IMG/VR virus record: IMGVR_UViG_3300045988_117159
Source: a virus
Strand: one strand, 5' to 3'
DNA: 54,852 nt
The first letter of the stretch is position 1. Every line of letters begins with the position of its first letter. Positions 1 to 54,852 of this stretch are shown here, one piece after another. The notes beneath the pieces are model-generated. The model ran no database searches, was not told the DNA's origin, and was given only the letters and a program-made list of their open reading frames with translations. A program made the translations under genes and the position numbers.

Positions 1-55
1 TTTTATGTATCTCTTTCTTACTACATATATAGTATAACATATTGTTATACATATG
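1..55. repeat. 55-bp terminal redundancy: 1-55 is identical to 54798-54852 (assembly overlap of a circular or permuted genome)
   Basis: Character-by-character comparison of the two window ends. Implied unit length is 54797 bp. Confidence 0.9.
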
Positions 56-59
56 TAAA
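31..59 (-). promoter_or_regulatory. Early promoter cassette copy 1: -35 TTTACA (59..54), 17-nt spacer, -10 TATACT (36..31), with an A/T-rich UP-like tract up to about 90. It drives the gene starting at 54798 across the junction.
   Basis: Near-consensus sigma-A hexamers with exact 17-nt spacing. The same module recurs 6 times, always just upstream of a gene start. Confidence 0.7.
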
Positions 60-94
60 GAGTTTTGAGTGAAGTTTTTTATTTTTTTTTGAAA

Positions 95-113
95 GAAGTT
101 AAAAGACAACTTC
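95..113 (-). terminator. Weak hairpin (GAAGTT/AACTTC) overlapping the primase stop codon
   Basis: 6-bp stem with a 7-nt loop and only a short T run afterwards. Confidence 0.3.
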
Positions 114-1058
114 AAGGCTCTTAACTTCTTCTTGTAAATCATTTATATCTCTATCGTCTTTATAAACAACTTCTTTAATTAATTTATTTTTAACATTTCT
201 TCTAAATCTTTGAGTTGCTTTATATCCGGCATTGTCAGGGTCAAATGCTAAAACGTAAGAACGTACAGGTAATTTAGATAATATATCATATTGATGTTTA
301 TTCCCTGTTCCTATTAAAGCCATAGACGGAATTCCATATTTCCAAAGAGTTAAACAATTTAGAAATGATTCTACTATCCATGCCTCTTTATATTTTCCAT
401 TTGTGAATCTATAAGCTTGATAAATTGGTTTTTCTAAATCTTTTGGCAAAGTAAAGAATTTATTACTGACATTTCTAGTTGCTACAAATACACAATTTCC
501 ATCTAAATCTAAAATAGGAAAAGTTAGGCAACTTCTAGATTTATCATAACCAATATCAAATTCTTCTATAATTTCATCAGTTAATCCTCTCTTATACATG
601 TAAGGATGAATATATCTATAAGAATCTAATAATGATTCAGGAATATATTTACCGCTATGCTTGTTATTAGCGATATTAGAATTATTATTACTACTTCCAT
701 TTAATACCTCCATTAAATTTGGTCGTGTTTCAATTTCTACTGAATTGAAATGTTTAATCAACCAATTTTTTCCATATTTTCCCCTATCTTGATAACCATA
801 TAATTGAGAAATCATATCTTCAATTCCACCACTCCAACCACAAGCAAAACAGTGACATTTATTTAATTCACCATTTACACCGAAGGATGGTTTTCTTTCT
901 TGACCGTCTTTGTGAAATGGACAAGTTGTTTGAATGTTTTGTCCATTTAATCTAAATTGAAAGAATCTATTTATACCGTGAAGTGCTAATTCATCTTTTA
1001 GCACTTCCAACATTGTAATGGTATCCGTATTTATTAATATATCTTCAATTTTAATCAT
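99..1058 (-). CDS. dnaG: DNA primase (CHC2 zinc finger + TOPRIM)
   Basis: CPFHKDG..CHCFACGWSG zinc-finger motif. TOPRIM-type acidic motifs (IVESF, AFDPDNAG). Sits in the same block as the DnaB-like helicase. Confidence 0.85.
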   Translation of the reverse strand: MIKIEDILINTDTITMLEVLKDELALHGINRFFQFRLNGQNIQTTCPFHKDGQERKPSFGVNGELNKCHCFACGWSGGIEDMISQLYGYQDRGKYGKNWLIKHFNSVEIETRPNLMEVLNGSSNNNSNIANNKHSGKYIPESLLDSYRYIHPYMYKRGLTDEIIEEFDIGYDKSRSCLTFPILDLDGNCVFVATRNVSNKFFTLPKDLEKPIYQAYRFTNGKYKEAWIVESFLNCLTLWKYGIPSMALIGTGNKHQYDILSKLPVRSYVLAFDPDNAGYKATQRFRRNVKNKLIKEVVYKDDRDINDLQEEVKSLEVVF

Positions 1059-1319: not shown

Positions 1320-1517
1320 TTATGCGACTAACTTTTTTAAAGCTAATCTTGTTTTTCTTCTATAAGTTAGAAGTGTATTAATTTGTTCTCTAGTTTCAGC
1401 TTCATCCATTTCAATAGAAATTAATTTATCTAGGTTTTTCAACCCTCTATATTTAATGCTATCGCTAGCATTTTGTAATTGATTAAATCTTTCTTTAATT
1501 CCTTTATAATCCCACAT
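1320..1517 (-). CDS. hypothetical protein (65 aa), first gene behind promoter copy 2
   Basis: ORF directly after the conserved leader AGAGGTACATAAAAATG. Confidence 0.55.
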   Translation of the reverse strand: MWDYKGIKERFNQLQNASDSIKYRGLKNLDKLISIEMDEAETREQINTLLTYRRKTRLALKKLVA

Positions 1518-1548
1518 TTTTATGTACCTCTTTTCTTATTACATACAT

Positions 1549-1577
1549 AGTATAACATATGTATAACAATATGTAAA
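1549..1577 (-). promoter_or_regulatory. Early promoter cassette copy 2 (-35 TTTACA 1577..1572, -10 TATACT 1554..1549, spacer in the flipped orientation)
   Basis: Same hexamers and 17-nt spacing. The spacer reads TATTGTTATACATATGT on the coding strand. Confidence 0.7.
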
Positions 1578-1617
1578 GTGTTTTGTGTAAAGTTTTTTAT
1601 TTTTTTTTAAATAAAAA

Positions 1618-1637
1618 AAGAAGCATTTAAGCTTCTT
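1618..1637 (-). terminator. Rho-independent terminator type I (AAGAAGC-TTAAAT-GCTTCTT followed by a T run)
   Basis: 7-bp stem followed by TTTTTTTATTT on the coding strand. The stop codon of the 95-aa gene lies inside the stem. Confidence 0.7.
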
Positions 1638-1914
1638 CCAATTCTCCAAAAAGTTCTTCATATTTTCTATAATCGTATTTCAATAATAACTCTTTAGCTT
1701 TAGCCTCACCAATAGCCATTGCACACGTTGTATCATCTTGATACCATGTGATTAAATATCTTCCTTTTTTACTTCTATAAAGTTTGGCATCATACATATT
1801 AAGAATTTTAGAATCTAAAAATCTAATATAAGTTGTTACTCCTTTCTTCACTTTTTCGGAAACTAATTCCATTTTTTCAGTTTCATATTTTAGATTATCA
1901 ATGACGAATAACAT
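1627..1914 (-). CDS. hypothetical protein (95 aa)
   Basis: ORF packed tightly after the helicase. Ends ..ELEEA inside the terminator. Confidence 0.55.
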   Translation of the reverse strand: MLFVIDNLKYETEKMELVSEKVKKGVTTYIRFLDSKILNMYDAKLYRSKKGRYLITWYQDDTTCAMAIGEAKAKELLLKYDYRKYEELFGELEEA

Positions 1915-5116: not shown

Positions 5117-5144
5117 ATTTGTTTTTCCTCCTTAATATGTAAAA

Positions 5145-5286: not shown

Positions 5287-5369
5287 TAATTATTCAATTT
5301 TATTGCACTGTATATATTTATTTCCTTCATACTTATGATACAACTTTTTATTGAATAATACAATATTTT

Positions 5370-6667: not shown

Positions 6668-6727
6668 CTAATCACCTCCTTCAAATCTCAAATATATTGT
6701 AATACATAAATAGTTGAAAGTAAATAT

Positions 6728-8864: not shown

Positions 8865-9161
8865 TTATTCTTCATAAGGTTCAAATTCTTCAAAATCATC
8901 ATTATCATCATTATTTCTTAAAGCAATTTGATGATAAAGTGCTTCTAATGATGGACTATAGAAACTTTCTACTTGTCTAATGTTTCTTAATTCATCATGA
9001 ATAACTCTACCAAAGAAATAACCGTCACTGCATTCAATAACTTCGAGCTTTACTTGTACATTGCTATTAATATAATAGCTTTCTTCGTCCGTAGGATAAA
9101 CACACCCTACGTTATCACAATATCGCATCGCTTCTTTAATTGTCAAAATTGTTTCTACCAT
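8865..9161 (-). CDS. hypothetical acidic protein (98 aa), first gene behind promoter copy 3
   Basis: ORF directly after the cassette. Acidic tail NDDNDDFEEFEPYEE. Confidence 0.55.
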   Translation of the reverse strand: MVETILTIKEAMRYCDNVGCVYPTDEESYYINSNVQVKLEVIECSDGYFFGRVIHDELRNIRQVESFYSPSLEALYHQIALRNNDDNDDFEEFEPYEE

Positions 9162-9216
9162 TTTTCTTACCCTTTTTGATAACTCTTATTTGTTATCCCT
9201 TTCTTATTACATATAT

Positions 9217-9245
9217 AGTATAACATATATTTTTATGTATAACAA
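9217..9245 (-). promoter_or_regulatory. Early promoter cassette copy 3 (divergent: -35 TTGTTA 9245..9240, -10 TATACT 9222..9217)
   Basis: Same -10 and downstream ATATATG. The core TGTTATAC is displaced 8 bp upstream by an insertion. Confidence 0.55.
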
Positions 9246-9284
9246 TATATTTTGTTAAATTTGTTAAAAAATTTTAAAAATAAA

Positions 9285-9307
9285 AAGGTGTAAAATAATT
9301 ACACCTT
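9285..9307 (-). terminator. Rho-independent terminator (AAGGTGTAA/TTACACCTT)
   Basis: 9-bp stem, 5-nt loop, then TTTTTATTTTT on the coding strand. Abuts the stop of the 113-aa gene. Confidence 0.7.
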
Positions 9308-9648
9308 TAAATAATAGTTGTATTTGAAATTGATTCTAAATTTTTAAGATGATTTTTAAAAACTTGTTTTTCTTCTAATGTGCAAGAATTATAAAGTTCA
9401 CTCAACATCTTTCTAATAGTAGATAATAATGTTTCAAGATTATCAATATTTCTATTGTGCATATAATTAACAAATAAACCTTGGATATCCATAATAGTTT
9501 CATCAACATTACTTTCAGGAACTAAATCATATCCTTGATTTATTTTATTTATTTCAGCAAGTATTAAAAATGCCTCAACATCAAATCCTTTTTTAAGTTG
9601 ATTTTCAGCTAACTCTTTAGCAATGGGAATACTTTCCTCGAATGTCAT
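9307..9648 (-). CDS. hypothetical helical protein (113 aa), accessory island
   Basis: ORF, last gene before terminator 9285-9307. Confidence 0.5.
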   Translation of the reverse strand: MTFEESIPIAKELAENQLKKGFDVEAFLILAEINKINQGYDLVPESNVDETIMDIQGLFVNYMHNRNIDNLETLLSTIRKMLSELYNSCTLEEKQVFKNHLKNLESISNTTII

Positions 9649-32111: not shown

Positions 32112-32160
32112 TAAATCACTTCCTTTACTTAATAAATAATATAAATATTTTACAAAATTA

Positions 32161-32189
32161 ATTATATTATAATTATTATAAATATACAA
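32161..32189 (-). promoter_or_regulatory. Candidate late-operon promoter (-35 TTGTAT 32189..32184, 17 nt, -10 TATAAT 32166..32161)
   Basis: Hexamers read on the coding strand just after terminator 32205-32230. AT-rich background makes chance matches likely. Confidence 0.35.
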
Positions 32190-32204
32190 ACTATAATAAA
32201 AAAT

Positions 32205-32230
32205 AAAAAGAGTATGGCAGTACTCTTTTT
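32205..32230. terminator. Bidirectional-looking terminator (AAAAAGAGTA-TGGCAG-TACTCTTTTT) separating the early/middle genes from the terminase
   Basis: 10-bp stem with A/T runs on both sides. Confidence 0.65.
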
Positions 32231-32356
32231 AATAAACTAGTAATAATATGAAATATCTTTTTTACTCTTCACATGTAATATCCAAGTAGCATTCATTTTC
32301 ATCTACAGGAATTGTAATATTGCCCCTTTTTGTATATATTAATTATACTGATTTTC

Positions 32357-34838: not shown

Positions 34839-35192
34839 TTATTTCCTCTTTAAAATATATAAAGTTGCCTCATAATAATGCGTAGTATTTTCAACTTCAG
34901 TAGCATCAGCTAATATATTACAGCATGTTTCTAACAGGTCTCTTTTTAATTCATCTTCTACTGTATAAGTTTCACTTGTAGATAAGCTTGGAAAATAAGG
35001 TTTATTGTACTTCAAATGAATATCTTTGATTTCATATTCAGTAAATTCTACTTTTGGGGCGCCGTACTTAATAGATGATATTGAAATTAACTTATTATTT
35101 AATTTCTTAATCACTTTATAATCTTTATTTAGATTATAATATTTGATTCCTAATATTAATACAATAATTAATAATATAATATTTATATACAT
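34839..35192 (-). CDS. membrane-anchored hypothetical protein (117 aa)
   Basis: N-terminal transmembrane segment YINIILLIIVLILGI. Confidence 0.5.
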   Translation of the reverse strand: MYINIILLIIVLILGIKYYNLNKDYKVIKKLNNKLISISSIKYGAPKVEFTEYEIKDIHLKYNKPYFPSLSTSETYTVEDELKRDLLETCCNILADATEVENTTHYYEATLYILKRK

Positions 35193-36113: not shown

Positions 36114-36191
36114 TCCTTCAACCCACTAGCTTTTACCATTATTTTTTAATTCGTATTTCATCTTTCTCTCTCCTTTTTAATAATTTCATAT

Positions 36192-36395
36192 CTAAAATCC
36201 CATATACTCTCTCTTTACTTTTTTGATTGATTTAATAGCTTGTCTTAATGCTTTTGCATCTTGTTTACTAACAATATTTCTTTTATTTTTTGACATTGCA
36301 TAAACTAGCCCATCTAAATTCATTCTATTCATATATTGTAAATTTTCCATAAATTCCTTTTCACAATTTGTATATGTTTGTCCTAATTTTTTCAT
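36192..36395 (-). CDS. hypothetical basic protein (67 aa)
   Basis: ORF. Confidence 0.5.
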   Translation of the reverse strand: MKKLGQTYTNCEKEFMENLQYMNRMNLDGLVYAMSKNKRNIVSKQDAKALRQAIKSIKKVKREYMGF

Positions 36396-36444
36396 AACTA
36401 TTCTCCTTTATAAAATGATGTAAATTAAATATATTATATGATAA

Positions 36445-36726
36445 TTATTTCAATGTTATAACTTTATAATCACCATTTACTTTTTTATCTTGGTCACATA
36501 AAATATAACCTACTTCACAATTAAATATTTCACATAAGCTATACAATGTTTCAGCATCAGGAAGTTTTTTACCATTTTCAATATCACTTAAAGTATTTCT
36601 ACCAATGTGTAATTTTTCAATTAAATCATATTGTGTCATCCTCATTTCTTTTCTATTTTCTTTAATTCTTTTTCCAATTTCTACCATTTTTAATTTATAT
36701 TTCATTTTAAATTTCTCCTTTATCAT
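36445..36726 (-). CDS. XRE-family HTH protein (candidate antitoxin/regulator)
   Basis: IGKRIKENRKEMRMTQYDLIEKLHIGRNTLSDIENGKKLP is a classic Cro/C1-type HTH. ATGA overlap with the MazF-like gene. Confidence 0.8.
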   Translation of the reverse strand: MIKEKFKMKYKLKMVEIGKRIKENRKEMRMTQYDLIEKLHIGRNTLSDIENGKKLPDAETLYSLCEIFNCEVGYILCDQDKKVNGDYKVITLK

Positions 36727-37070
36727 AAATTAAATTGAATTCTCATACTTTGTTTTACTTTATTCACGTTATATTCATTTAAAGATAAAACTTTTTTAAT
36801 TAAAAATTCTTTTGATATCGTGACTGTTTGTTCCGATAATACATAATTATCAATTCCAAAAATTCTAATTTTAGTATGTTGAGGTAAATGGTCTTTTTTA
36901 GTTGTCAATGGAATAACTCCTATTAAATCACAATATTCATTATTCTTATCATTTGATACAACTACTGCCATTCTTCTTCCCTTTTGATAATGTTTATTTT
37001 TGGCTATTGGAAAAACTCTATTAAAATCAATCCAAAACACATCATCATATTTTATTTCATTTGATACCAT
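36723..37070 (-). CDS. mazF: MazF/PemK-family endoribonuclease-like toxin
   Basis: Colinear with EndoA/MazF: DVFWIDF.., GRRMAVVVSND, IGVIPLTTK, LPQHTKI, VLSEQTVTISKEFL. Confidence 0.75.
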   Translation of the reverse strand: MVSNEIKYDDVFWIDFNRVFPIAKNKHYQKGRRMAVVVSNDKNNEYCDLIGVIPLTTKKDHLPQHTKIRIFGIDNYVLSEQTVTISKEFLIKKVLSLNEYNVNKVKQSMRIQFNL

Positions 37071-37940: not shown

Positions 37941-38261
37941 TTATCTTGTATATACCATTACATTGATTCTTGGGTTTTCACAAAAGATTGTCTTTTTAGA
38001 TTCAACATATTTAGTTAAATCTAAACCATCAACGATTTCTTGAACTTTTTCAATTAATTCTTCTTTTACATAAAGTACTAAATTTTCACTATATGTATAG
38101 GCATCTTTGTAGCAATCTCTTTCTAATTCTACATCACCTTGTTTTGAAACAAATTCAGTTTTTAATCCTTTGATTTTTCCACTTTTAACTAATTTTGATT
38201 CCTTAACTGCAATTCCATTTCTTTTTAATTCATTTTTTACGATAACTTTTAAACTTTTCAT
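37941..38261 (-). CDS. hypothetical protein (106 aa), first gene behind promoter copy 4
   Basis: ORF directly after the conserved leader. Confidence 0.55.
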   Translation of the reverse strand: MKSLKVIVKNELKRNGIAVKESKLVKSGKIKGLKTEFVSKQGDVELERDCYKDAYTYSENLVLYVKEELIEKVQEIVDGLDLTKYVESKKTIFCENPRINVMVYTR

Positions 38262-38312
38262 TTTATGTACCTCTTCTTTCTTTATTTATGTTACTTCCTT
38301 AACTTCATATAT

Positions 38313-38341
38313 AGTATAACATATTGTTATACATATGTAAA
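38313..38341 (-). promoter_or_regulatory. Early promoter cassette copy 4 (-35 TTTACA 38341..38336, -10 TATACT 38318..38313)
   Basis: Spacer identical to copy 1. Confidence 0.7.
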
Positions 38342-38378
38342 GTGTTTTGGGTAAAGTTTTTTATTTTTTTAAATAAAA

Positions 38379-38398
38379 AGCTAGAAATTATTCTAGCT
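38379..38398 (-). terminator. Rho-independent terminator type II (AGCTAGAA-TAAT-TTCTAGCT followed by a T run)
   Basis: 8-bp stem containing the TAG stop of the delta-like gene. Same hairpin as at 43816. Confidence 0.7.
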
Positions 38399-39334
38399 CA
38401 AACATTTAACAACTAAATAATCTAATGCTATAGACTCATCAATCTTACCTAGTTTTATTCCACTTTCAACAAATTGACAAATGCCTAAATTTCTAATCAG
38501 CTCTTTAATTGAATATCCTCCAACCAGTTTTGAGCATCCATAAGCTTCACCTTTTGTTAAACCTGTTTTTTCACAAACACCTTTTTTATTATTCCCAACT
38601 GATTGATAAGCTAACTGATTTCTAAATCCGTTGTATAGTATACTTGCAATCATAATAGCAGGTTCTCCTTTTTGTTTTGCTTCATTTAATTTTATAATCG
38701 CTTTATCACTATAACCACCTAAAATAGCATTAGTTAATTCAAAAGTAATATCTCCAATTTCTTTGAAAAATATCCCTTGTTTATCCAAGATTTCAAAAGA
38801 TTCATTATTATCTTTTTTATTAAAATTAGAATATTGTTTTATCTTATCACATTCCAATAAGATTCTTCCATAGTCATTACTACAATAATCAATCAATTTA
38901 TCACAATTAGCCTCATTCAAATTAGGCAGCTCTTTTAGCACATAATTAATAAGAATATCATTTGTTAAATAATTAAATTCTACTGCATTTGATTTATTAC
39001 TTGTATAGAATTTGTTTCTCTTATCTAGTTTATGATATTTTAAAATTAATAAATCTTTTTTATTATTAAAAGTATTTTTTACAGTTGCCCAAGATTTCTC
39101 ATTTTTAATAAAATCTAAATCTTCACTAATAATATAGGCTTTTTTAGATTTATCTAATGATTTCATATTTACTTTATTCAAAGCAAAAATAACTGATTGA
39201 CACTCTATTTTTGTATAATTTTTTGAAATAATATCAATGTAATTATCTAATATACATTGTTCCTCTCCAAATAGAATTAAAAAATGCGGTAATGTCTTGT
39301 CTTTTATATGATTTCTTAAATCTATTAATTCCAT
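38393..39334 (-). CDS. holA: clamp loader delta subunit-like (HolA-like)
   Basis: N-terminus ..LPHFLILFGEEQCILDNYID.. resembles HolA (YLLYGEE). 313 aa. In an operon with gamma/tau and delta'. Confidence 0.55.
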   Translation of the reverse strand: MELIDLRNHIKDKTLPHFLILFGEEQCILDNYIDIISKNYTKIECQSVIFALNKVNMKSLDKSKKAYIISEDLDFIKNEKSWATVKNTFNNKKDLLILKYHKLDKRNKFYTSNKSNAVEFNYLTNDILINYVLKELPNLNEANCDKLIDYCSNDYGRILLECDKIKQYSNFNKKDNNESFEILDKQGIFFKEIGDITFELTNAILGGYSDKAIIKLNEAKQKGEPAIMIASILYNGFRNQLAYQSVGNNKKGVCEKTGLTKGEAYGCSKLVGGYSIKELIRNLGICQFVESGIKLGKIDESIALDYLVVKCLS

Positions 39335-40093: not shown

Positions 40094-40876
40094 TTAAACT
40101 TTATAATTGAAATAAATATCAATTAACATTCTATCAACTAAATAATAATTATTAAGTGATTTATTATCTAGTTGTGACTGCATATTAGAAATTAAATTTA
40201 TTGTTTCTTTTGATAATAATTCTTTATGATTCATTAAATTTAATAAAAATAATTTCATAAATTTTTCAATGCTCATTGATTCTTGATTTTTAAATGGTTT
40301 TAATTCTCTTGTCAATCTTAATAATTTTGTTCCATTTTTTTGACATATTGATTCAATAATATCTAATGAAAAATTATTGTATTTATCAACTTCATCAACA
40401 TCCTTCCAATTTTGAATATCATAAAAATTTGCACATACTTTTAAAATTTCTTTTGATTCACATTTCAAAGATAACTCTTCAAATGAATAAGGTTCCATAT
40501 GAAGCATCGTTCCACGACTTTTGATTGTACCCAGCATTCTATCATCATTATTAATTGTCATGATAAAGTAAGCATTTTTTGGTGGTTCTTCCACTACTTT
40601 TAATAAGGCATTTTTAGCATTCACGCTCATATTATCACAGTCTCTAAAAATACATAGTAATTTATCATTCATTGTATTTACATATTCTATGCAGTTTCTT
40701 ACATCATTAATAGAATTGTCAAAAATTAAACATCTAGCATTTATCACATTTCCAATAACTTTTGCTAATGTAAACCTGCCACTTCCTTTAGATCCACTAA
40801 TAATGATAAATCTAGGAACTGCTCTATTTAATCTCCAATTTTTAACTATTTCAATATTGTTCTTTTGACCAATCAT
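40094..40876 (-). CDS. holB: clamp loader delta' subunit-like AAA+ protein
   Basis: ISGSKGSGRFTLAK P-loop-like, ALLKVVEEPP, TIKSRGT sensor motif. Confidence 0.65.
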   Translation of the reverse strand: MIGQKNNIEIVKNWRLNRAVPRFIIISGSKGSGRFTLAKVIGNVINARCLIFDNSINDVRNCIEYVNTMNDKLLCIFRDCDNMSVNAKNALLKVVEEPPKNAYFIMTINNDDRMLGTIKSRGTMLHMEPYSFEELSLKCESKEILKVCANFYDIQNWKDVDEVDKYNNFSLDIIESICQKNGTKLLRLTRELKPFKNQESMSIEKFMKLFLLNLMNHKELLSKETINLISNMQSQLDNKSLNNYYLVDRMLIDIYFNYKV

Positions 40877-40880
40877 AATT

Positions 40881-41894
40881 TTAACCTCTACAATAATTAA
40901 TTATCATCATTTCAATAATTTCTTTTGGTTCATTATTCCATTTGATTGTGTTTGTAATATCAAGCATTAAATCAAGAATACTATAAATATCATCACCTAT
41001 AATGCTCTCAATTTTTTCTTGATTCTCATTTGTAAATGGGATTGAAATATATTTGAAACTTTTAAAGATATAATATTTTGTTAAATCTAAAATAAATTTG
41101 CTAAAATCTTTGATAAATAATTTTAAATCTTTTCCGTCATTAAAAATTGATTCTACAATTTCAATAGATTTTTTAGTGTCTTGATTTCTTAAATTTTCCA
41201 CAAAATCAAATAAAATATCATAATCAGCTCCACCTACTGTATCTAGTACATTTTTAATAGTTAATTCTTTTGATAAAGATAGACATTTATCTAATAAAGT
41301 AATAGAATCACGCATCCCACCATTTACAATTTTAGCAATATACTCTAATGCTTCATTTTCATAATTTACAATTTTTTCTCTTTCTAAAATAAATTGCAAT
41401 CTTCTTACAATTCCATCATTACTGATTTTATTGAATTGATACCTTTGAACTCTTGATAAAATTGTATTTGGAATCTTTTGTTGGTCAGTTGTGCATAAAA
41501 TAAAAATTGAAAATTTAGGTGATTCTTCTAAAGTTTTTAATAGAGCCTGCCAAGCCCCATTAGATAAGCTATGGCATTCATCAATAATAAATATCTTATA
41601 TTCACAATCCAATGGTTTCTTTTTAGCATCATCAATAATATTTCTAATATTATCAACCCCACTATTTGACGCAGCATCAACTTCAATAGGATTTCCTTCA
41701 CCTTGATTTATCATGTTAGCAAAGATTCTTGCTGATGTTGTTTTTCCTGTTCCTGCAGGACCAGTAAATAAATATCCATGTTGAAATGTTTTTGTTTTAA
41801 TTTGATTAGTTAAAATATCCTTGATAGCTGACTGTTCAGTCATGTCATCAAAATTTTTAGGTCTATATTTAACTGCTAGTGGTTGTCTTGCCAT
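40881..41894 (-). CDS. dnaX: DNA polymerase III gamma/tau-like clamp loader ATPase
   Basis: YRPKNFDDM, GPAGTGKTT, IIDECH, LLKTLEE, SRVQRYQF. Confidence 0.9.
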   Translation of the reverse strand: MARQPLAVKYRPKNFDDMTEQSAIKDILTNQIKTKTFQHGYLFTGPAGTGKTTSARIFANMINQGEGNPIEVDAASNSGVDNIRNIIDDAKKKPLDCEYKIFIIDECHSLSNGAWQALLKTLEESPKFSIFILCTTDQQKIPNTILSRVQRYQFNKISNDGIVRRLQFILEREKIVNYENEALEYIAKIVNGGMRDSITLLDKCLSLSKELTIKNVLDTVGGADYDILFDFVENLRNQDTKKSIEIVESIFNDGKDLKLFIKDFSKFILDLTKYYIFKSFKYISIPFTNENQEKIESIIGDDIYSILDLMLDITNTIKWNNEPKEIIEMMIINYCRG

Positions 41895-42410: not shown

Positions 42411-42650
42411 TTATTGTAGCCATATTCTTGGTGAATCATCTTCTTTTGTATCAATAATTTCTAATGTGTTAAAACCATTGCAAGTTCTTTGTAGCCTTGC
42501 CTTAACTCTACTTGCAACTTTTAATGATTTATAGACTTTGATACACCCATACCCATATTTAGGTTTTTCAAAGATTGCATATTTTTCATATTGAACAATA
42601 TAATCCTTTCCTGTATAATATTCACCCTGTTCATTCTTAATAACGTACAT
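42411..42650 (-). CDS. hypothetical protein (79 aa)
   Basis: ORF. Confidence 0.5.
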   Translation of the reverse strand: MYVIKNEQGEYYTGKDYIVQYEKYAIFEKPKYGYGCIKVYKSLKVASRVKARLQRTCNGFNTLEIIDTKEDDSPRIWLQ

Positions 42651-42792
42651 TTCTTACTCTCCTTTTCAATTCTCCATTTTTAAGTCTAGCTCCTCTAGAT
42701 TCTCCTTTTGGAGTTAGTAATATTCTAAAGGGTTGATTCTCTTTAAAATCATACCCTTTAAAACGATTTATCTTATTAAATATATTTTTCAT
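42637..42792 (-). CDS. small basic ORF (51 aa), not in the track
   Basis: TAATG coupling with the upstream gene. Overlaps the next start by 14 nt. Confidence 0.35.
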   Translation of the reverse strand: MKNIFNKINRFKGYDFKENQPFRILLTPKGESRGARLKNGELKRRVRNVRY

Positions 42793-43052
42793 TAATCCAC
42801 CTCTAATTTTTCAACTTGTTCTTTAGTAAAGAAAGCTAATAGTTTTAAAAAGTAATTTTGAGTTTCAACTTCTTCACCTTTTTCATTTTCTACTTTTTTA
42901 GTAGTTCTTTTCCAAATAGAAATTTTATGTTTTGATTTTTCACCTTTTTTAACTTTATAACCAAGTCTTTTCCATTCAGCAAAAGTATGTAATTCTATAC
43001 TTGGTTCTAGTTCATTCATTGCTATATATCTTGATATGATTTCTTTATTACA
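42792..43052 (-). CDS. small protein with an ArdC-N-like motif (86 aa from the ATG at 43052)
   Basis: GAGGAGG SD before ATG 43052. HTFAEWKRLGYKVKKGEKS resembles the ArdC/DUF1738 ssDNA-binding motif (TF.QW..LG..VKKGEK). Confidence 0.35.
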   Translation of the reverse strand, partial: CNKEIISRYIAMNELEPSIELHTFAEWKRLGYKVKKGEKSKHKISIWKRTTKKVENEKGEEVETQNYFLKLLAFFTKEQVEKLEVD

Positions 43053-43056
43053 CATT

Positions 43057-43377
43057 CTACTTACCTCCTCTAAATGTTTTAACAGCAATACCCATATCAT
43101 TTAAGTTAAATAAATTATAATAAGGTTCTTCTTGATTGTTAAGATAGTCCATCACCATTTGTTGTGAAATTAATTCTTTAATTTTTTCTTTTCCAATGAA
43201 TCTAATTTCTTTATTTCCTATAGTGTCTACAACTGAATCATAACAAGAATTTAATAAATCTAATAAACTTGGTACTTCTTCCACACCATCTTCACAAGCA
43301 TTCATCCAACCACATACTTCAAATCTAATAAATTTTCTTGTTAATATAACTGTTCTTTCTTGTAATTTATTTTCCAT
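43057..43377 (-). CDS. hypothetical protein (106 aa)
   Basis: ORF preceded by the leader-like GGTAAGGTACATAAAGATG. Confidence 0.5.
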   Translation of the reverse strand: MENKLQERTVILTRKFIRFEVCGWMNACEDGVEEVPSLLDLLNSCYDSVVDTIGNKEIRFIGKEKIKELISQQMVMDYLNNQEEPYYNLFNLNDMGIAVKTFRGGK

Positions 43378-43398: not shown

Positions 43399-43701
43399 TT
43401 ATGCTAATAATCCACGATTTTTCATTTCTTTTCTTACTGCATTAATGATTTTTCTATATGAGATAAAGTTTCCTTCTTCATCTTCTAATTCATTAGAATC
43501 ATTCAAATATAAATTAACATTATTTTCATTTGAATAGTCGTTTAGCATGTAAATGACATCTTCTTTAAAATCTTGTGAATCTTGACCATAAGCTTCTAGC
43601 ATATCAGTCCATGTTTCAATTCCCCAATCTTGATAATATCCTGTTAATTCTTTTTCTTGTTCGTCAACAATAATTTTTACTACTAATTCAAATTTTTTCA
43701 T
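43399..43701 (-). CDS. hypothetical acidic protein (100 aa), first gene behind promoter copy 5
   Basis: ORF directly after the cassette. D/E-rich. Confidence 0.55.
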   Translation of the reverse strand: MKKFELVVKIIVDEQEKELTGYYQDWGIETWTDMLEAYGQDSQDFKEDVIYMLNDYSNENNVNLYLNDSNELEDEEGNFISYRKIINAVRKEMKNRGLLA

Positions 43702-43747
43702 TTTATGTACCTCTCTTTTTTATGTATCTCTTTCTTACTTCATATAT

Positions 43748-43776
43748 AGTATAACATATGTATAACAATATGTAAA
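43748..43776 (-). promoter_or_regulatory. Early promoter cassette copy 5 (-35 TTTACA 43776..43771, -10 TATACT 43753..43748, flipped spacer as in copy 2)
   Basis: Same hexamers. The spacer is TATTGTTATACATATGT. Confidence 0.7.
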
Positions 43777-43815
43777 TAGTTTTGGGTAAAGTTTTTTTAT
43801 TTTTTTTTAAATAAA

Positions 43816-43839
43816 AAAGCTAGAAATTATTCTAGCTTT
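43816..43839 (-). terminator. Rho-independent terminator type II (same hairpin as 38379..38398)
   Basis: AGCTAGAA-TAAT-TTCTAGCT plus A/T extension, containing the TAG stop of recA. Confidence 0.7.
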
Positions 43840-44848
43840 GTAACTTATTTATTCCTTGAATCAATTTAGCATAAGCTTCTTTATTGTCTTGATAATATTT
43901 AATCAAGTTATATTTTCCTTGAAATTTTTCATCCTTTGAAATTTCTCCTGATTCTAAATCTACTAAATAAAACCATGCTCCTGCTTGATTTAATAAACCT
44001 AATTTGATTCCAACATCTATAGCATCAGAAATATAATCAATACCATCTAGATACCTCAATGTATAGAATCCTACTTTTCTATCAGCTCTACATATTTTTG
44101 ATTTTGTCAAAGCTACGTTGACTATATTCCCGGCAGGATTTTCACAAGACCTTGATAAATTTTTTCCTTGTTCATCAATATAATTTCCTTTCCTAAATTC
44201 TAATCTAGTGGTACAAGCGTGCCTCCAAGCTTTTCCACCTGTGGTAGTTGTGCCTCCATACATGCTATTCATATCATCCCTAACTTGATTTATTCCTATA
44301 AGAATGGCATCAGTTCTCGCTAGAATAGGTGTTACTTTTTTAGAAAATTCAGTTAAAGACATACTTATTCCTCCATATGTTCTTTCACCAATATCTTTTT
44401 CATTGGACTGCGTTGATACCATAGCACCTATAGAATCTAGAATACCTACACTTATTTCGCCGGTTTCAAATAATTCCATCATCATGTTAAATACTTCTTC
44501 GGCTCCCATTGAGTCAGGGTCAAAATATAATATGTTGTCACAATCTAACCCTAACTTTGTAGCCCAAATCCTATCAAATGTATGTTCTATGTCAACAATT
44601 AGTACTTTTTTATCAGGATATAACTTTTGAGCATTTCCTGCCAAATCTATAGCAGTTGTTGTTTTTCCACTTCCATCACTTCCATAAAATTCAGCAATTC
44701 TTCCAACAGGCAATCCTCCATAAGTCATATAATTTAATCGGCAAGAAGAAAAAGGAATTTTAGTTATTTCTTTTTCTTCCACACCTAAAGATATATTTCC
44801 AATTTTCATATTTTTATTTAACGATTTTACAACATTTTCTAAAGACAT
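43832..44848 (-). CDS. recA: RecA-family recombinase
   Basis: Walker A GSDGSGKTT, VLIVDIE, LIGINQVRD, length 338 aa. Confidence 0.8.
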   Translation of the reverse strand: MSLENVVKSLNKNMKIGNISLGVEEKEITKIPFSSCRLNYMTYGGLPVGRIAEFYGSDGSGKTTTAIDLAGNAQKLYPDKKVLIVDIEHTFDRIWATKLGLDCDNILYFDPDSMGAEEVFNMMMELFETGEISVGILDSIGAMVSTQSNEKDIGERTYGGISMSLTEFSKKVTPILARTDAILIGINQVRDDMNSMYGGTTTTGGKAWRHACTTRLEFRKGNYIDEQGKNLSRSCENPAGNIVNVALTKSKICRADRKVGFYTLRYLDGIDYISDAIDVGIKLGLLNQAGAWFYLVDLESGEISKDEKFQGKYNLIKYYQDNKEAYAKLIQGINKLQS

Positions 44849-48158: not shown

Positions 48159-48389
48159 TTATTTAGCTAAAACCCAACCAAGATTTTCAATACATGATTT
48201 TGGAAACCATTTATCAAAATCATGATTCAATTTATCATTTGGGTTAAAAATATGTAATTGAACTGCTTTTTCAGTTTCTTTAACCACTTCAAATCTATAA
48301 GCTGTATTTACTGATGATGCAATAACCCAAGATTCTAACTTATTAATAATCCAACTTTTAAATTTTACTTCGCAAAATTTCTTTTCCAT
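48159..48389 (-). CDS. hypothetical protein (76 aa), first gene behind promoter copy 6
   Basis: ORF directly after a duplicated leader. Confidence 0.55.
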   Translation of the reverse strand: MEKKFCEVKFKSWIINKLESWVIASSVNTAYRFEVVKETEKAVQLHIFNPNDKLNHDFDKWFPKSCIENLGWVLAK

Positions 48390-48438
48390 CTTTATGTATC
48401 TCTTTCTTTTTTATGTATCTCTTTCTTACTACATATAT

Positions 48439-48467
48439 AGTATAACATATTGTTATACATAATACAA
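48439..48467 (-). promoter_or_regulatory. Early promoter cassette copy 6 (-35 TTGTAT 48467..48462, -10 TATACT 48444..48439)
   Basis: Spacer identical to copies 1 and 4, with a degenerate -35. Confidence 0.6.
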
Positions 48468-48505
48468 GTGTTTTGGGTAAAGTTTTTTATTTTTTTTAAA
48501 TAAAA

Positions 48506-48525
48506 AAGAAGCTATTAAGCTTCTT
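48506..48525 (-). terminator. Rho-independent terminator type I (same stem as 1618..1637)
   Basis: AAGAAGC-TTAATA-GCTTCTT followed by a T run. It contains the ..EEA-stop of the clamp gene. Confidence 0.7.
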
Positions 48526-49594
48526 CATCTTCTAACAGTGCAATTACTTGAATCACTTTTCCACATTCTAATTTAATAGCATTATCATCACCATACCATA
48601 ATTTAACTGTGTCTTCAGGATAAGCTTGTAATTGCTCTTTTAACATTGGAATATCCACTAGGCACGTAAATGGCTTAAATTCATGTGATTCAATATAATT
48701 AATTGTTTCAGTTGATGCATCTTTTCTACTATGAATATTTAAACCTTTTCTTGTAAAGTTAAAATATGCTCCGTTTTTATCATATGGTTCAATAAATAAT
48801 TGTAATCTATCTAACACTGATAGTAATAATGCTTTAGGAATCTTACAATATGATTCAAAGGCAACATCTAAATATCTAGAAATTTCTTCTACCGGATAAT
48901 CTTCAATTCCTTCTAATAATGTTCCATAAATCATCATATTATCATCATAGATAATTAATTCATCAGCTCCACCTAATGTTACTTTAACATCTTCATTTTT
49001 AAATAGTGACATTAAGTTCATCATTTGCGGTGAAATTAATAAAGGTTGTTTTGAATTAAACATATTGAATTTATTAAATGTAATAACCATACTATCAGTA
49101 GAAATTACATTATCACCACAATAATAACCAGTTAAGCAAGGTTGCTCTAATGTTTTGGCTAAAGCTGATTTATTAATATTAAATGCCGACATGATGCTTG
49201 ATAATTTAACTGTTAATTGTTCAGTTGCTTCAATCTTTGGAATTTCAGGAAAGCTAACCAATCCTTCTTCATCACTTATTAATGAAATCTTATATGTTCC
49301 ATTCCCTTTGATAATTAGTACATCATCTTTAACTGATAAATCAATTTCAGGTGATGTCATTTTAGAAATTAATTTTCCAAACTTTTCCGCTTCTACTGTA
49401 ATATCAATATCATCACCTAAAACTTTATCTAATGTCATTTCTAATGTATTTGTCATATCAGTTGATAATAAATGTAATTTATTATTATTTAATTTAATTC
49501 CAATCATTTGAGTAATTGGAATTAATGCATTATTACTTGTTCCCTTTAAAGAATTATTTACTGCTTCTTTTAATAAATTTGTTGCAATTTTCAT
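48515..49594 (-). CDS. dnaN: DNA polymerase III beta sliding clamp-like protein
   Basis: 359 aa. The N-terminus MKIATNLLKEAVN..IPITQMIGIKLNNNKLHLLSTDMTNTLEMTL parallels DnaN. Clamp-loader genes are in the genome. Confidence 0.7.
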   Translation of the reverse strand: MKIATNLLKEAVNNSLKGTSNNALIPITQMIGIKLNNNKLHLLSTDMTNTLEMTLDKVLGDDIDITVEAEKFGKLISKMTSPEIDLSVKDDVLIIKGNGTYKISLISDEEGLVSFPEIPKIEATEQLTVKLSSIMSAFNINKSALAKTLEQPCLTGYYCGDNVISTDSMVITFNKFNMFNSKQPLLISPQMMNLMSLFKNEDVKVTLGGADELIIYDDNMMIYGTLLEGIEDYPVEEISRYLDVAFESYCKIPKALLLSVLDRLQLFIEPYDKNGAYFNFTRKGLNIHSRKDASTETINYIESHEFKPFTCLVDIPMLKEQLQAYPEDTVKLWYGDDNAIKLECGKVIQVIALLEDEEA

Positions 49595-49613: not shown

Positions 49614-50192
49614 TTAAAATAGTTCTTTTTTATGCTCTTTTATAATTAAATCATCATTAGCACAATATCTATGAGAATAACATACTCTATTTATATAGAA
49701 TAACATTGTTTCAATATTATTTTTATAATGCCGTTTAGCGCAATCACGTATTGTTCCATCTTTTGTTAAGTCATTCTTTCTATTACAATGATTTAACTTT
49801 GTAGGCTCCCATAATTCACTATGATTATCTCTATGAACTCCCATTCTAGGATTAGCTGTTTTTGCATAATACAAATATCCCTGTTGTGTATAAATATCAC
49901 CAAAATATTCAGATAATTTATTACCTATACTCATACCTTGATAATCTGGAAGAACAACAAATCTATGTTCGATATAAGCTTTTTTGTTATTTTTAAATTT
50001 ACCAGGAAGACATCGTACACTTGCAAAAGCAACTAATTTATCATTCCAAGTAGCTAAATAGCAATCTGAATTATTTAATAAATTTCCACTTAAATAATGA
50101 TGTCTTTTAAAGTACGTCCAAACTTGGGGTTTACACTTACAAATTTTAAGAATAATTTTTGACTTTCTCCTGGGACAATCACTTAAAATCAT
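49614..50192 (-). CDS. GNAT-fold acetyltransferase-like protein
   Basis: Motif A-like FVVLPDYQGMSIGNKLSEYF (Q/R-x-x-G-x-G/A). ATGA overlap with the ATPase gene. Confidence 0.55.
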   Translation of the reverse strand: MILSDCPRRKSKIILKICKCKPQVWTYFKRHHYLSGNLLNNSDCYLATWNDKLVAFASVRCLPGKFKNNKKAYIEHRFVVLPDYQGMSIGNKLSEYFGDIYTQQGYLYYAKTANPRMGVHRDNHSELWEPTKLNHCNRKNDLTKDGTIRDCAKRHYKNNIETMLFYINRVCYSHRYCANDDLIIKEHKKELF

Positions 50193-50782
50193 TTTTTTGT
50201 ATCTAAATTATAAATCCAATCAGGTTTTAACCAATCTATAATATCATAATGACAGCTAGCAAAAACTATATTTTTTAATTTTTTATTTCTTATATATTTT
50301 TGAATAGAGTAAGAGCAACTAATTGCGCACTCTCTATTTACTACACTAGTAAATTCATCAATTACTGCATTATCTTTCAATTTTCTAGCCAAGTTTGCTC
50401 TAAATCGTTGACCATTTGACAACGTATTATATGATTGTAACCAAGTTGGAATAGAATTTAATCCTACAGCTCCTAAACGTTCAATAGCATCCTCGTAATT
50501 TTCAAAATTATCTGCTATACAATAATCATTATTCCATGATATTTTTTCATCTTTTCCAAATTTAGATAAAAGAGTTGATTTTCCTGAACCTGATGCACCA
50601 ATTATTAACCCAATTTGAAAATCACTTGGAAAATTTGGAATGTCTATCTCAATTTTTTGTTTTCCATCAAATTCATAATCAAAAGCATTTGATATTTTTT
50701 TAGTGGTATCTGTAAGAATTATTTTATTTTCTAAAATTATGCTGTTTTTTTTTGTTTTCGTTTCTATATTAAATAAACTCAT
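50189..50782 (-). CDS. minimal ABC-type ATPase (197 aa)
   Basis: Walker A GASGSGKST, signature LSNGQRFRANLARKL, Walker B AVIDEFTS, H-loop-like ASCHYD. Confidence 0.7.
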   Translation of the reverse strand: MSLFNIETKTKKNSIILENKIILTDTTKKISNAFDYEFDGKQKIEIDIPNFPSDFQIGLIIGASGSGKSTLLSKFGKDEKISWNNDYCIADNFENYEDAIERLGAVGLNSIPTWLQSYNTLSNGQRFRANLARKLKDNAVIDEFTSVVNRECAISCSYSIQKYIRNKKLKNIVFASCHYDIIDWLKPDWIYNLDTKK

Positions 50783-54210: not shown

Positions 54211-54798
54211 TTAACTTAATTGCCAATTATAACTAACATTACAAGAATCAATATATTTACTAAGTTGATATCGTCTTCCTCTATGAGTATACTTAATAAA
54301 TAAATAGCGATTTGATTCTAATAAGATTAAATCACAATCTTTAATTTCTCTTCGTCTTCTAGATTCAGTTTCTTTTACGATATTCATATATTTTTCATAA
54401 AATTTAGAACCTTTTTTAATTTCAACTTCTCTTGAAAGTTTACGATTTTTACCAAAATAATTATTTAATCTTTTATGGCTCTTTTGTTGAGCTTCTTCAA
54501 ACTCTTTTTTACTAGTTGTGTAAACATCATCACTAATCTTATATACAGTGAAGAAATATTTTTGTGAATTACATAATTCTACAACATAATCAAATACTTT
54601 ACGTTCTCCTTCTCTTCGTTTTAATCCAACTGTTAATGTAATATCTTCATTATCAACACTAACTGCTGTAACTGAAATTCTAAAATCATTTCCATATAAT
54701 GTGTTAGTTAAAACAAAATCTTTATGAAAATCTAATTCCATCATCATTTGTTCAGTTACTATTCTTCTTAATTCTTTTTCTTTGTAAATTGTTCTCAT
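54211..54798 (-). CDS. hypothetical protein (195 aa from MRTIY), first gene behind promoter copy 1
   Basis: ATG 54798 sits exactly where the other cassette copies place their start. The 17 extra codons in the track run through the leader and the -10 box. Confidence 0.6.
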   Translation of the reverse strand: MRTIYKEKELRRIVTEQMMMELDFHKDFVLTNTLYGNDFRISVTAVSVDNEDITLTVGLKRREGERKVFDYVVELCNSQKYFFTVYKISDDVYTTSKKEFEEAQQKSHKRLNNYFGKNRKLSREVEIKKGSKFYEKYMNIVKETESRRRREIKDCDLILLESNRYLFIKYTHRGRRYQLSKYIDSCNVSYNWQLS

Positions 54799-54852
54799 TT
54801 TATGTATCTCTTTCTTACTACATATATAGTATAACATATTGTTATACATATG

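Follow-up and report, generated by a model that had tools for sequence, protein, structure and literature searches.

The window, by which we mean the whole stretch of DNA analysed here (54,852 nt, from a human-gut phage of ~55 kb), carries six copies (c1–c6) of a cassette of ~100–140 nt (n = 6), all on the coding (minus) strand, and we consider it probable that these are host sigma-A punctuation cassettes that double as homology for exchange and whose spacers flip neutrally. Each cassette except c1 would end the upstream unit with an intrinsic terminator overlapping the preceding stop codon, transcription would restart at a strong host sigma-A promoter with a predicted G start 7 nt downstream of the −10 box, and the transcript would begin with a leader that is short, purine-rich and unstructured and includes a GAGG-type Shine-Dalgarno (SD) sequence. 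Punctuated in this way, the ~32-kb early/replication arm would be split into six units, which unmodified host RNA polymerase could read directly after infection. Furthermore, the copies have ~100 nt in common, and genes for RecA, a Cas4-like nuclease and resolvases are present in the phage, so that the cassettes may act as portable homology; gene conversion would homogenise them among themselves, and at these junctions small accessory ORFs could be gained, lost, exchanged or copied.

The phage itself is best explained as a virulent-type Firmicutes phage of the human gut. Its nearest phages by PolA and TerL are Clostridium phiCTP1, Streptococcus Dp-1 and Blautia Montmirail, and the domains of its endolysin (gene 12343–13221) point to a Gram-positive host. 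A megablast of 8 kb against GenBank phages gave zero matches, which argues that there is no cultured close relative, and a search of the whole window against Rfam (at gathering thresholds) and with ARAGORN found nothing, so that by the Rfam result the leaders and hairpins of the cassettes do not belong to known RNA families.

All six copies that the first-pass annotation had reported are present, each on the minus strand (Table 1), and far above chance: the 18-mer TATGTTATACTATRTATG occurs seven times against 0.65 expected, a count that none of 100 shuffles reaches, and a repeat search recovers the copies independently as one family (D1, 97 nt, 68–89% identity to the reference). The match at 54821–54838 is a circular-assembly duplicate rather than a seventh copy, since it falls in the 55-nt overlap of the window ends (positions 1–55 equal 54798–54852); the same overlap bears out the junction duplicate that had been placed at 54828–54852, and the ATG downstream of c1, at position 1, is the same base as 54798. 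The outlier among the copies is c3, with 63–70% identity and no A tract. In the late block (32111–12099), from terminase to endolysin (packaging to lysis), neither an nhmmer profile nor pattern searches find any copy, in agreement with the absence that had been claimed. An iteron-like 21-nt array, separate from the cassettes, lies inside the initiator gene.

Table 1. Cassettes, first downstream ORFs and two further signals in the window (all on the minus strand; TSS, transcription start site; energies in kcal/mol, predicted).
Feature	Span	Hairpin	−35	−10	Second 8-mer	Predicted TSS	Leader (nt)	ATG	Remarks
c1	1..125	125–98	59–54	36–31	inverted, 43–50	24 (G)	23	1	after primase gene; A tract; CTTCACTCAAAAC box
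c2	1518..1639	1639–1616, −12.4	1577–1572	1554–1549	direct, 1561–1568	1542	25	1517	
c3	9162..9308	9308–9284, −11.4	9245–9240	9222–9217	9237–9244, supplies −35	9210	49	9161	
c4	38262..38399	38399–38378, −14.2 (z −5.3)	38341–38336	38318–38313	inverted, 38325–38332	38306	45	38261	T-run/A-run palindrome; CTTTACCCAAAAC box
c5	43702..43839	43839–43816, −13.4 (z −5.4)	43776–43771	43753–43748	direct, 43760–43767	43741	40	43701	after RecA
c6	48390..48526	48526–48505, −12.7	48467–48462	48444–48439	inverted, 48451–48458	48432	43	48389	after beta-clamp gene
First ORF after c1	54211..54798								195 aa
First ORF after c2	1320..1517								65 aa, begins MWDYKG
First ORF after c3	8865..9161								98 aa
First ORF after c4	37941..38261								106 aa
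First ORF after c5	43399..43701								100 aa
First ORF after c6	48159..48389								76 aa
Promoter-like site outside the repeat family	6696..6724								after SNF2; TTTACT-17-TACAAT (ATGTATTACAATAT); no terminator
Terminator without cassette	32192..32231	−10.0 (z −2.95)							closes c4 unit

The TATACT hexamer (five of six matches to TATAAT) and the 17-nt spacing previously noted hold in all six copies, as does the extended −10 TGTTATACT, with TG at −15/−14. The −35 box is TTTACA in c1, c2, c4 and c5 (five of six consensus positions), TTGTTA in c3 (four of six) and TTGTAT in c6 (three of six), and a promoter scanner scores the first four of these copies at 10/12 with the TG. The 19-mer ATATGTTATACTATRTATG, which spans the −10/start core, has exact matches at 44 viral loci whose flanks are unrelated, typically with a TTGACA 17 nt upstream, and at 54 bacterial loci, mostly in genomes of Clostridia and Bacilli; of these 54, 27 have a −35 of at least four of six matches at the 17-nt distance, and one lies ahead of a tRNA gene. 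With the −35, spacer, TG and −10 of a Firmicutes sigma-A extended −10 promoter in place, and the same core found in host-type chromosomes, the cassettes are, at the level of sequence, predicted to carry promoters of this type. Read as a search for the host, the scan of bacterial genomes with the 19-mer returns many Firmicutes and none with the family-specific cassette. As a sequence common to Firmicutes chromosomes and many unrelated phages, the 19-nt core is a candidate for a strong, portable promoter in gut Clostridia and Bacilli.

The first-pass annotation had taken the high identity of the promoters to imply co-regulated early units, and this does not follow: because the core is that of a generic strong Firmicutes promoter, found in unrelated phages and bacterial chromosomes, identity between copies is no evidence of special co-regulation, and identity outside the core is better attributed to concerted evolution and cassette exchange. 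Other promoter-like or terminator sites exist beyond the cassettes (6724–6696, 25221–25193, 13549–13522, 32231–32204 and 11825–11794). The first of these, after the SNF2 gene, resembles the type II cassettes that relatives have at the same junction, and those at 25221–25193 and 13549–13522 are sigma-A-like and precede late genes, so that promoter class alone is no proof of the early timing that we presume for the cassette units. Two further candidates within the cassettes were rejected, namely the CTTTAC box and the upstream 8-mer as a tandem upstream promoter, because they are spaced 20 nt apart, and an antisense promoter from the inverted 8-mer, for which the plus strand offers no −35.

Upstream of the −35 lies an AT-rich tract, a candidate UP element, with an A run at approximately −66 to −51 and CAAAAC at approximately −44 to −37, which also mirrors the T-tail of the terminator; a distant clade has T runs in place of the A tract. 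At the 3′ end of the cassette are the SD and the start codon. The leaders are short and purine-rich, with GAGG-type SD sequences, and are predicted to be unstructured (0 to −1.6 kcal/mol) except for a small hairpin in c3. The common leader described earlier is not common: exact AGAAAGAGATACATAAAATG occurs in c1 only, and the other copies hold variants or a tandem duplicate, the latter being a perfect 19-nt duplication of the SD unit in c6 (48391–48427). Likewise, the ATATATG said to follow the −10 box is present in every copy but c2, which reads ATGTATG.

An intrinsic terminator had been claimed for every copy, and is credible in five of the six. In c2–c6 the predicted hairpins have a stem that contains G+C, a short loop and a U tract, and are stable relative to shuffled sequence (−11.4 to −14.2 kcal/mol, z −2.9 to −5.4); c1 has only a weak hairpin (−6.6 kcal/mol, z −0.9) that no U-tail follows. 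The stop codon of the upstream gene sits within the terminator hairpin, that of the delta-like gene, for example, inside the terminator of c4, and the hairpins are homologous in pairs, c2 with c6 and c4 with c5. At the clamp and RecA junctions the relatives L047, L049 and L053 have strong hairpins (−17 to −22 kcal/mol) with unrelated stems, and at the primase junction no clade compared has a credible terminator. A bidirectional terminator was rejected, since the plus-strand reading lacks a T-tail. The c4 unit is closed by the predicted cassette-free terminator (Table 1), which lies immediately ahead of the terminase ATG (32111) and separates the early arm from the packaging genes.

The genes of the cassette-bounded units are those of replication and recombination, among them SSB, PolA, clamp, RecA, clamp loaders, SNF2, DnaD/O-like, DnaC-like, DnaB and primase, and the late block has none; at the level of sequence this agrees with the restriction of the cassettes to early and replication genes described previously. 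The accompanying statement that each copy opens with a small ORF stands for five copies (65–106 aa) and fails for c1, where the first ORF is not small (Table 1). When compared with PHROGs, Pfam and PDB sequences, the six first ORFs returned no PHROG function, no Pfam family and no credible PDB relative; a match of the c1 first ORF to RB69 DNA polymerase (E = 0.005) is marginal, and we do not rely on it. The first ORFs are variable accessory genes, ORFans at the head of what are nevertheless core replication operons. The third gene in the c5 unit codes for an ArdC-N domain protein, in keeping with, though no demonstration of, an anti-defence or host-takeover role for the first ORFs. In practical terms, the cassettes provide a map of predicted early units and accessory-gene hot spots, which narrows the search for such functions to the ORFs directly downstream.

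A search of related genomes, as proposed with the original description, recovers the cassettes with variants in several independent assemblies and samples, and the comparison indicates that they evolve in concert. Copies within one genome are 73–93% identical in the window and 80–91% in L047, against 47–68% when one and the same junction is compared between clades. Promoter types I and II swap at the same junctions between relatives, and in genomes whose flanks are 95–99% identical the spacer orientation, the leader type and the −10 hexamer (TATACT or TACAAT) differ at orthologous sites, as does, between near-identical genomes, the first downstream ORF. The first ORF after c5 is deleted in two independent samples (contig 117691 and SAYO22 (L154)), contig 117181 has a different ORF of 85 aa inserted after c3, ahead of the usual first ORF, and in contig 110617 the cassette is duplicated together with the MWDYKG ORF after the clamp gene, where this ORF copy and then a novel gene stand in place of the c6 first ORF. 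In the distant clade, c2 and the ORFs at 1320–1517 and 1051–1260 are missing between DnaB and primase. The −35 box, the −10 box and the SD unit each show local duplications within cassettes, which resemble scars of out-of-register exchange. Indels and replacements between close relatives map to cassettes, some of them chimeric, and other indels lie elsewhere: of about 11 structural differences counted in the early arm, about 3 lie next to a cassette, for which a rough binomial estimate made by hand gives ~0.07 and is suggestive only, and several indels fall mid-operon, such that the cassettes are not the sole route of gene flux.

The 8-mer that forms the −10, TGTTATAC, recurs in the spacer. 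This 8-mer is confined to the cassettes, exactly two per cassette (14 matches against 2.8 expected), and where the second copy is inverted (c1, c4 and c6, with c2 and c5 direct) a perfect 8-3-8 palindrome overlaps the −10. In the distant clade the arrangement is retained, the 8-mer there differing by one base and occurring in both orientations, GTATTACA and TGTAATAC. These properties would fit an operator at which a phage or host DNA-binding protein switches all six early promoters together, a reading that we nevertheless consider unlikely. Both orientations of the spacer 8-mer occur at five of the six sites among near-identical genomes, from which it follows that the orientation encodes no site-specific regulation; junctions with a type I cassette can instead carry type II, in which no second box is obvious; and the variant in both orientations is equally explained by frequent flipping or gene conversion. 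As the cassette copies are homologous, they do not constitute independent evidence for an operator. The XRE helix-turn-helix (HTH) protein encoded at 36445–36726, the sole clear HTH gene of the early arm, was rejected as regulator since it is missing from relatives that keep the cassettes (contigs 110617 and 110899). Short asymmetric motifs at many sites, overlapping promoters, are familiar from the C1 operators of phage P1 and the stoperators of mycobacteriophage L5, for both of which the repressor is identified, and stoperators have a fixed orientation to transcription. Here, in contrast, the HTH candidate is not co-conserved with the sites, and the orientation of the 8-mer is free.

Under our preferred reading, that of punctuation cassettes with exchangeable homology, the flip appears to be neutral. 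The spacer has a 20-bp frame, ACATAT-N8-ATATGT, the palindromic arms of which overlap the −35 and the TG motif, so that inverting the 8-bp centre spares all core promoter elements, and with these intact both orientations can circulate. Alternatively, and in our view improbably, the frame is an actively re-orientable element or operator, its 8-bp core being bound by a putative factor or flipped through palindrome-mediated template switching, and the cassette-proximal ORFans form a rapidly exchanged pool of anti-defence and host-takeover genes. If this were the case, the phage population would hold a standing heterogeneity of early-promoter behaviour.

It is also conceivable that the copies are alike only through independent selection toward a host-optimal promoter, terminator and ribosome-binding site, with no exchange. 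The identical −10/start core in many unrelated phages and bacterial chromosomes does indicate strong convergent or consensus pressure on that part of the cassette. However, parts that follow no consensus are also alike (A tract, CTTTAC..AAAC box, spacer core and leader), the hairpins are homologous in the pairs described above, whole leader and spacer alleles move between positions while the flanks remain 95–99% identical, and a module of cassette and ORF is duplicated at a second site, all of which makes convergence alone very improbable. Finally, that the repeats are assembly artefacts, iterons, packaging signals or a MITE-like selfish element is scarcely credible: the window ends do duplicate 55 nt of c1 and short-read Logan contigs break inside c5, but each cassette has unique flanks and is recovered in independent assemblies and samples with variants, the iteron-like array is a separate one in the initiator gene, no transposase, terminal inverted repeats or target-site duplications were noticed on reading the cassettes, and the cassettes fit exactly between stop codon and SD/ATG, in coding orientation. 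The cassettes, in turn, explain breaks and mis-joins in short-read assemblies of these phages.

Among known systems, the host-takeover module of Bacillus phage SPO1 likewise consists of numerous short early operons, each equipped with a strong sigma-A promoter, a strong SD and a terminator; it is located within the terminal redundancy of what is a large myovirus and codes for small takeover proteins, not replication genes, and to our knowledge repeat-mediated exchange has not been established for it. Closer in organization are the PeSLs of T4-like myoviruses, which are composite promoter-early stem-loop cassettes (Arbiol et al. 2010, PMC2839356; Comeau et al. 2014, PMC4122927). Both are composites of ~100 nt with an AT-rich upstream part, a strong early promoter of the host sigma-70 family, a stem-loop terminator and an SD/ATG; both occur in many copies per genome, are followed by ORFans and are sites of indels and replacements between close relatives; and in both the crossovers appear to lie between the −10 and the SD. 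The two have no sequence homology, however, and the phage group considered here is not a T4-like myovirus. Here the hairpin is a predicted intrinsic terminator upstream of the promoter, whereas the PeSL stem-loop usually lies between or over the −35 and −10; the stems are AT-rich rather than polyG/polyC; the cassettes bracket core replication operons instead of hyperplastic ORFan-rich regions; and there are only six copies, with a spacer that has a re-orientable 8-bp core.

The layout of the units is that of the Bacillus subtilis siphovirus SPP1, which, in the part of its description drawn upon here (PMC6316719), has five terminator-bracketed sigma-A early units, PE1–PE5. In SPP1, which is lytic and infects a Firmicutes host, contiguous polycistronic early units are transcribed from several canonical sigma-A promoters and bracketed by Rho-independent terminators; replication genes and small, uncharacterised moron-like ORFs are mixed in them, and the late genes use different signals. 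In that same part of the description its early promoters are not presented as a repeat family, and no cassette exchange is described. By analogy, then, we regard the cassettes as a Firmicutes-phage counterpart of PeSL cassettes, apparently laid out like the SPP1 early units. New relative to the first-pass annotation are their concerted evolution, the exchange of alleles at the same site, and the second copy of the −10 8-mer in both orientations. The result extends the idea of mobile regulatory cassettes from the T4-like myoviruses of Gram-negative hosts to an uncultured family of human-gut phages.

The six copies of the cassette (c1-c6), all on the minus strand of a 54,852-nt window of 28% G+C on which all credible genes also lie on the minus strand, were recovered at the same six sites by a de novo repeat search made without prior information (a 97-nt family), and a profile built from them detects none beyond these six in the window. 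An 18-mer around the -10 box has 7 matches, six from the copies and one from the end overlap, against 0.65 expected. Read on the coding strand, all six sites show the element order described in the first-pass annotation (terminator hairpin, A/T tract, promoter, SD leader, ATG), and 6/6 copies carry TG-T-TATACT with a spacer of exactly 17 nt. The module is thus real and correct in outline, but it has neither six terminators nor a single leader, and c3 is a divergent outlier (63-70% identity). Terminator-like hairpins enclosing the preceding gene's stop codon lie just upstream of c2-c6 (-11.4 to -14.2 kcal/mol, z -2.9 to -5.4), giving five terminators, whereas the c1 hairpin lacks a U-tail and is no more stable than shuffled sequence (-6.6 kcal/mol, z -0.9). 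A duplicate of c1 at the junction does exist, but it is the overlap of a circular assembly, as indicated by the identity of the first and last 55 nt, which leaves the count at six.

The T-tail (TTTTTTATTT) and the next A tract (AAATAAAAAA) are complementary to each other, a CTTTAC(N3)AAAC box duplicates the -35 region with a 14-nt period, and the -10 box is itself a local duplicate (11-12-nt period). The copies bear SD leaders as claimed, but in variants rather than one fixed sequence: c4 and c5 have two SD units each, and that of c6 is duplicated with a 19-nt period at 100% identity. With transcription predicted to start at a G 7 nt beyond TATACT, the leaders would be 23-49 nt long, purine-rich and essentially unstructured.

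Cassettes, transcription units and other features of the window
Feature	Coordinates	-35 box	Upstream 8-mer	Unit or remark
c1	1..125	TTTACA	inverted	195-aa ORF, SSB, PolA, two phrog_11143 genes, beta-clamp
c2	1518..1639	TTTACA	direct	two small ORFs, primase
c3	9162..9308	TTGTTA	direct	small ORFs, SNF2 helicase, DnaD/O-like initiator, DnaC-like loader, DnaB
c4	38262..38399	TTTACA	inverted	~25 small genes incl. MazF-like protein, XRE HTH regulator, MazG-like protein
c5	43702..43839	TTTACA	direct	small ORFs incl. ArdC-N domain protein, resolvase, clamp-loader gamma/tau, second loader subunit, delta-like protein
c6	48390..48526	TTGTAT	inverted	small ORFs, Cas4-like nuclease, RuvC-like resolvase, RecA
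Cassette-free terminator	32231-32204			end of c4 unit, just ahead of terminase ATG at 32111
TTTACT-17-TACAAT site	6724-6696			after SNF2
Sigma-A-like sites	25221-25193, 13549-13522			ahead of capsid and lysis genes
Strong terminators	11825-11794, ~10440-10405			outside cassettes
Replisome/recombination genes	38393-39334, 40094-40876, 40881-41894, 48515-49594, 50793-53042, 43832-44848
Initiator gene	4298-5116			DnaD/O-like
Tandem repeat	4746-4828			21 nt x3.8, inside initiator gene
Intergenic fold	5110-5375			upstream of initiator gene
MazF-like gene	36723-37070			followed by XRE-type HTH gene
XRE-type HTH gene	36445-36726
ArdC-N protein gene	42792-43100			third gene of c5 unit
Terminase large-subunit ORF	30522-32189
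PolA-clamp interval	49614-50782			hypervariable; L045 12236-15185
Other differing genes	42411-42650, 34839-35192, 36163-36696, 8545-8844			distant from cassettes

That cassettes are confined to the early and replication arm holds by the gene content of the units and by the profile search, although the table shows that promoter-like and terminator signals also occur outside them. The replication and recombination set is unusually complete for a 55-kb genome, comprising a beta sliding clamp, three clamp-loader-type proteins (gamma/tau, second loader subunit, delta-like), PolA, RecA, a Cas4-like nuclease and two resolvases. Within the initiator gene, the 21-nt array (TGTAAAGTTTCTTTACACCCC) is iteron-like and a candidate replication origin; the initiator gene of relatives has 15-nt repeats (L047, a distant-clade contig, 4601-4660). 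The 253-nt intergenic region upstream forms a long-range stem (-67 kcal/mol, z -5.8) without an Rfam match, and could be a structured RNA or an origin-associated DNA structure. In the terminase large-subunit ORF, database TerL alignments begin at residue 146, and the ~145-aa N-terminal extension, unmatched in other TerL proteins, is perhaps a small-subunit-like domain, either fused or so far unannotated; translation more likely starts at the ATG at 32111 than at the TTG at 32189.

Five close IMG/VR contigs (110617, 110899, 117181, 117691 and 102093; PolA 97-98% where measured) and a distant clade of at least eight contigs (PolA 69-74%) share the gene order SNF2 ... DnaD/O-DnaC-DnaB-primase, SSB-PolA, variable genes-clamp, Cas4 ... 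RecA, and a cassette follows primase, clamp and RecA across the family, but with varying sequence. In the distant clade both type I (TTTACA/TTGACA-17-TGTTATACT) and type II (TTGCAA-17-TGTTACAAT) cassettes occur, type II throughout in L047 and mixed in L049, together with an extra cassette after PolA, where the window has none; conversely, L047 has DnaB directly next to primase, and c2 with its two small ORFs is inserted between these genes in the window. Relatives carry strong hairpins of unrelated sequence (-17 to -22 kcal/mol) at their clamp and RecA junctions, which supports terminator function at c2-c6, and the weak c1 hairpin is explained by the absence of a primase-junction terminator from every clade compared.

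Beyond this phage, the exact 19-mer ATATGTTATACTATRTATG of the promoter core occurs at 44 IMG/VR loci, most with wholly unrelated flanks and on contigs of up to 216 kb, usually 17 nt downstream of TTGACA. It also occurs at 54 loci in species-representative bacterial genomes, mostly gut Clostridia and Bacilli MAGs, 27/54 of which have a -35 (at least 4/6 matches) exactly 17 nt upstream and one of which lies directly ahead of a tRNA gene. Judged by these sequence matches, the promoter is not phage-specific, the cassette core being a copy of a strong housekeeping promoter of generic type. No better argument is at hand that unmodified host sigma-A RNA polymerase would read the core, and hence that the promoters would be early ones. 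The Firmicutes chromosomes that hold this core span 25-62% G+C, and its -10/discriminator/start is strikingly invariant. The most economical model would be a composite punctuation cassette of terminator, sigma-A promoter and leader, and its most likely function would be punctuation of early transcription by host RNA polymerase.

The sequence originates from a human gut metagenome (exact-protein look-up: ENA run ERR636379, PRJEB7369, contig of 54,945 bp), and megablast finds no close cultured phage. This source, together with the nearest PolA proteins (Clostridium phage phiCTP1/FA88, 44-45%; Streptococcus phage Dp-1/MS1, about 43%), the nearest TerL proteins (Blautia phage Montmirail and human faecal contigs) and the endolysin domains (Amidase_5, NlpC/P60, PG_binding_1), points to a Firmicutes host.

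The copy identity that had been taken to imply co-regulation is real, but it is not a special sign of it, as concerted evolution and cassette-mediated exchange account for the repeat family. Cassettes cluster by genome, not by position: window copies are mostly 73-93% and L047 copies 80-91% identical, and those at the same junction in different clades only 47-68%. Comparing modules at one site between genomes with 95-99% identical flanks, we find the inverted allele with a GAAGTTAAGG leader at c4 in the window and at c2 and c5 in 110617, and TACAAT, not TATACT, in c1 of 117691 and in c5 of SAYO22, a sample encoding exactly the RecA protein of the window. The first ORF after c5 is absent from 117691 and SAYO22, 117181 has a new 85-aa ORF after c3, and 110617 has 1.1 kb beside c6 replaced, starting with a second copy of the cassette, the 65-aa MWDYKG ORF and about 35 nt found elsewhere at c2 (64/65 residues identical). 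The shared ~100 nt would serve as a homologous-exchange substrate for the phage RecA, nuclease and resolvase set. Enrichment of differences near cassettes (~3 of ~11 events) is only suggestive, because others, including the PolA-clamp island, are cassette-distant. In that interval the two phrog_11143 genes of the window give way in 110617 to 2.9 kb coding for a DNA methyltransferase (FSPPF motif) and helicase-like proteins, and in the distant clade to other, unrelated genes. Logan short-read contigs L155 and L156 (ERR636379, ERR2737935) end inside c5, ~85 nt past the stop codon of RecA, as expected of a true repeat; cassette repeats fragment assemblies of this phage family.

The 8-mer TGTTATAC is confined to cassettes in the window, with exactly two in each (14 matches including the overlap, 2.8 expected), one being the extended -10. 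c1 and c4 share an 18-nt spacer core (CATATGTATAACAATATG) that, reverse-complemented, reads exactly as the core of c2 and c5, and the palindromic arms of the enclosing frame, ACATAT-N8-ATATGT, overlap the -35 end and the TG motif, so that inversion leaves all core promoter elements unchanged. Where unrelated phages use this frame, N8 is arbitrary; in the cassette family the close clade has GTATAACA/TGTTATAC and the distant one GTATTACA/TGTAATAC, the same base change thus being carried in both orientations. Among close relatives, both orientations are seen at c1, c2, c4, c5 and c6, and orientation is conserved at no site. Since, moreover, inversion keeps the -35, spacer length, TG and -10, a neutral flip is favoured, with the core frequently re-oriented, perhaps because paralogous cassettes convert one another over short tracts or because the 6-bp inverted arms allow template switching. 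It is also possible, though less likely, that the spacer core is a recognition element of constrained sequence and free orientation, the 8-mers acting as operator for a DNA-binding protein, which fits the base change shared by both orientations; the clade-specific N8 pattern would fit either reading. The flip, for which we favour neutrality, is the one cassette feature without ready precedent.

The six first ORFs, directly after the cassettes, have no PHROG function, Pfam family or credible PDB relative, and are accessory genes, variable among close relatives. The ArdC-N protein of the c5 unit matches the ArdC N-terminal domain (28.6 bits, Pfam cutoff 22.6), an anti-restriction, ssDNA-binding domain. 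The suggestion that first ORFs may be host-takeover or anti-defence genes is thus a reasonable guess. In the c4 unit, contigs 110617 and 110899 keep the MazF-like gene and are without the XRE HTH gene and an adjoining 67-aa ORF.

Early punctuation by host RNA polymerase would be ordinary for a lytic Firmicutes phage: B. subtilis phage SPP1, with five sigma-A early units, Rho-independent terminators around them, replication genes and moron-like ORFs, resembles the window in the layout of early units (PMC6316719). For concerted evolution and cassette exchange, the known counterpart is the promoter-early stem-loop (PeSL) cassette of T4-like phages, in which an AT-rich tract, a sigma-70 early promoter, a stem-loop terminator and SD/ATG are followed by ORFans, and which mediates indels and replacements with crossovers mapped between -10 and SD (PMC2839356, PMC4122927). 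The PeSL reports found in a literature search concern only T4-like, jumbo and cyanophage myoviruses, which is limited evidence of absence elsewhere. On the model favoured here both elements combine punctuation and exchange substrate in one, but the present cassettes are non-homologous, belong to another phage group, carry a classical terminator ahead of the promoter and flank operons of core replication genes; they would be a known kind of element in a new lineage and configuration.
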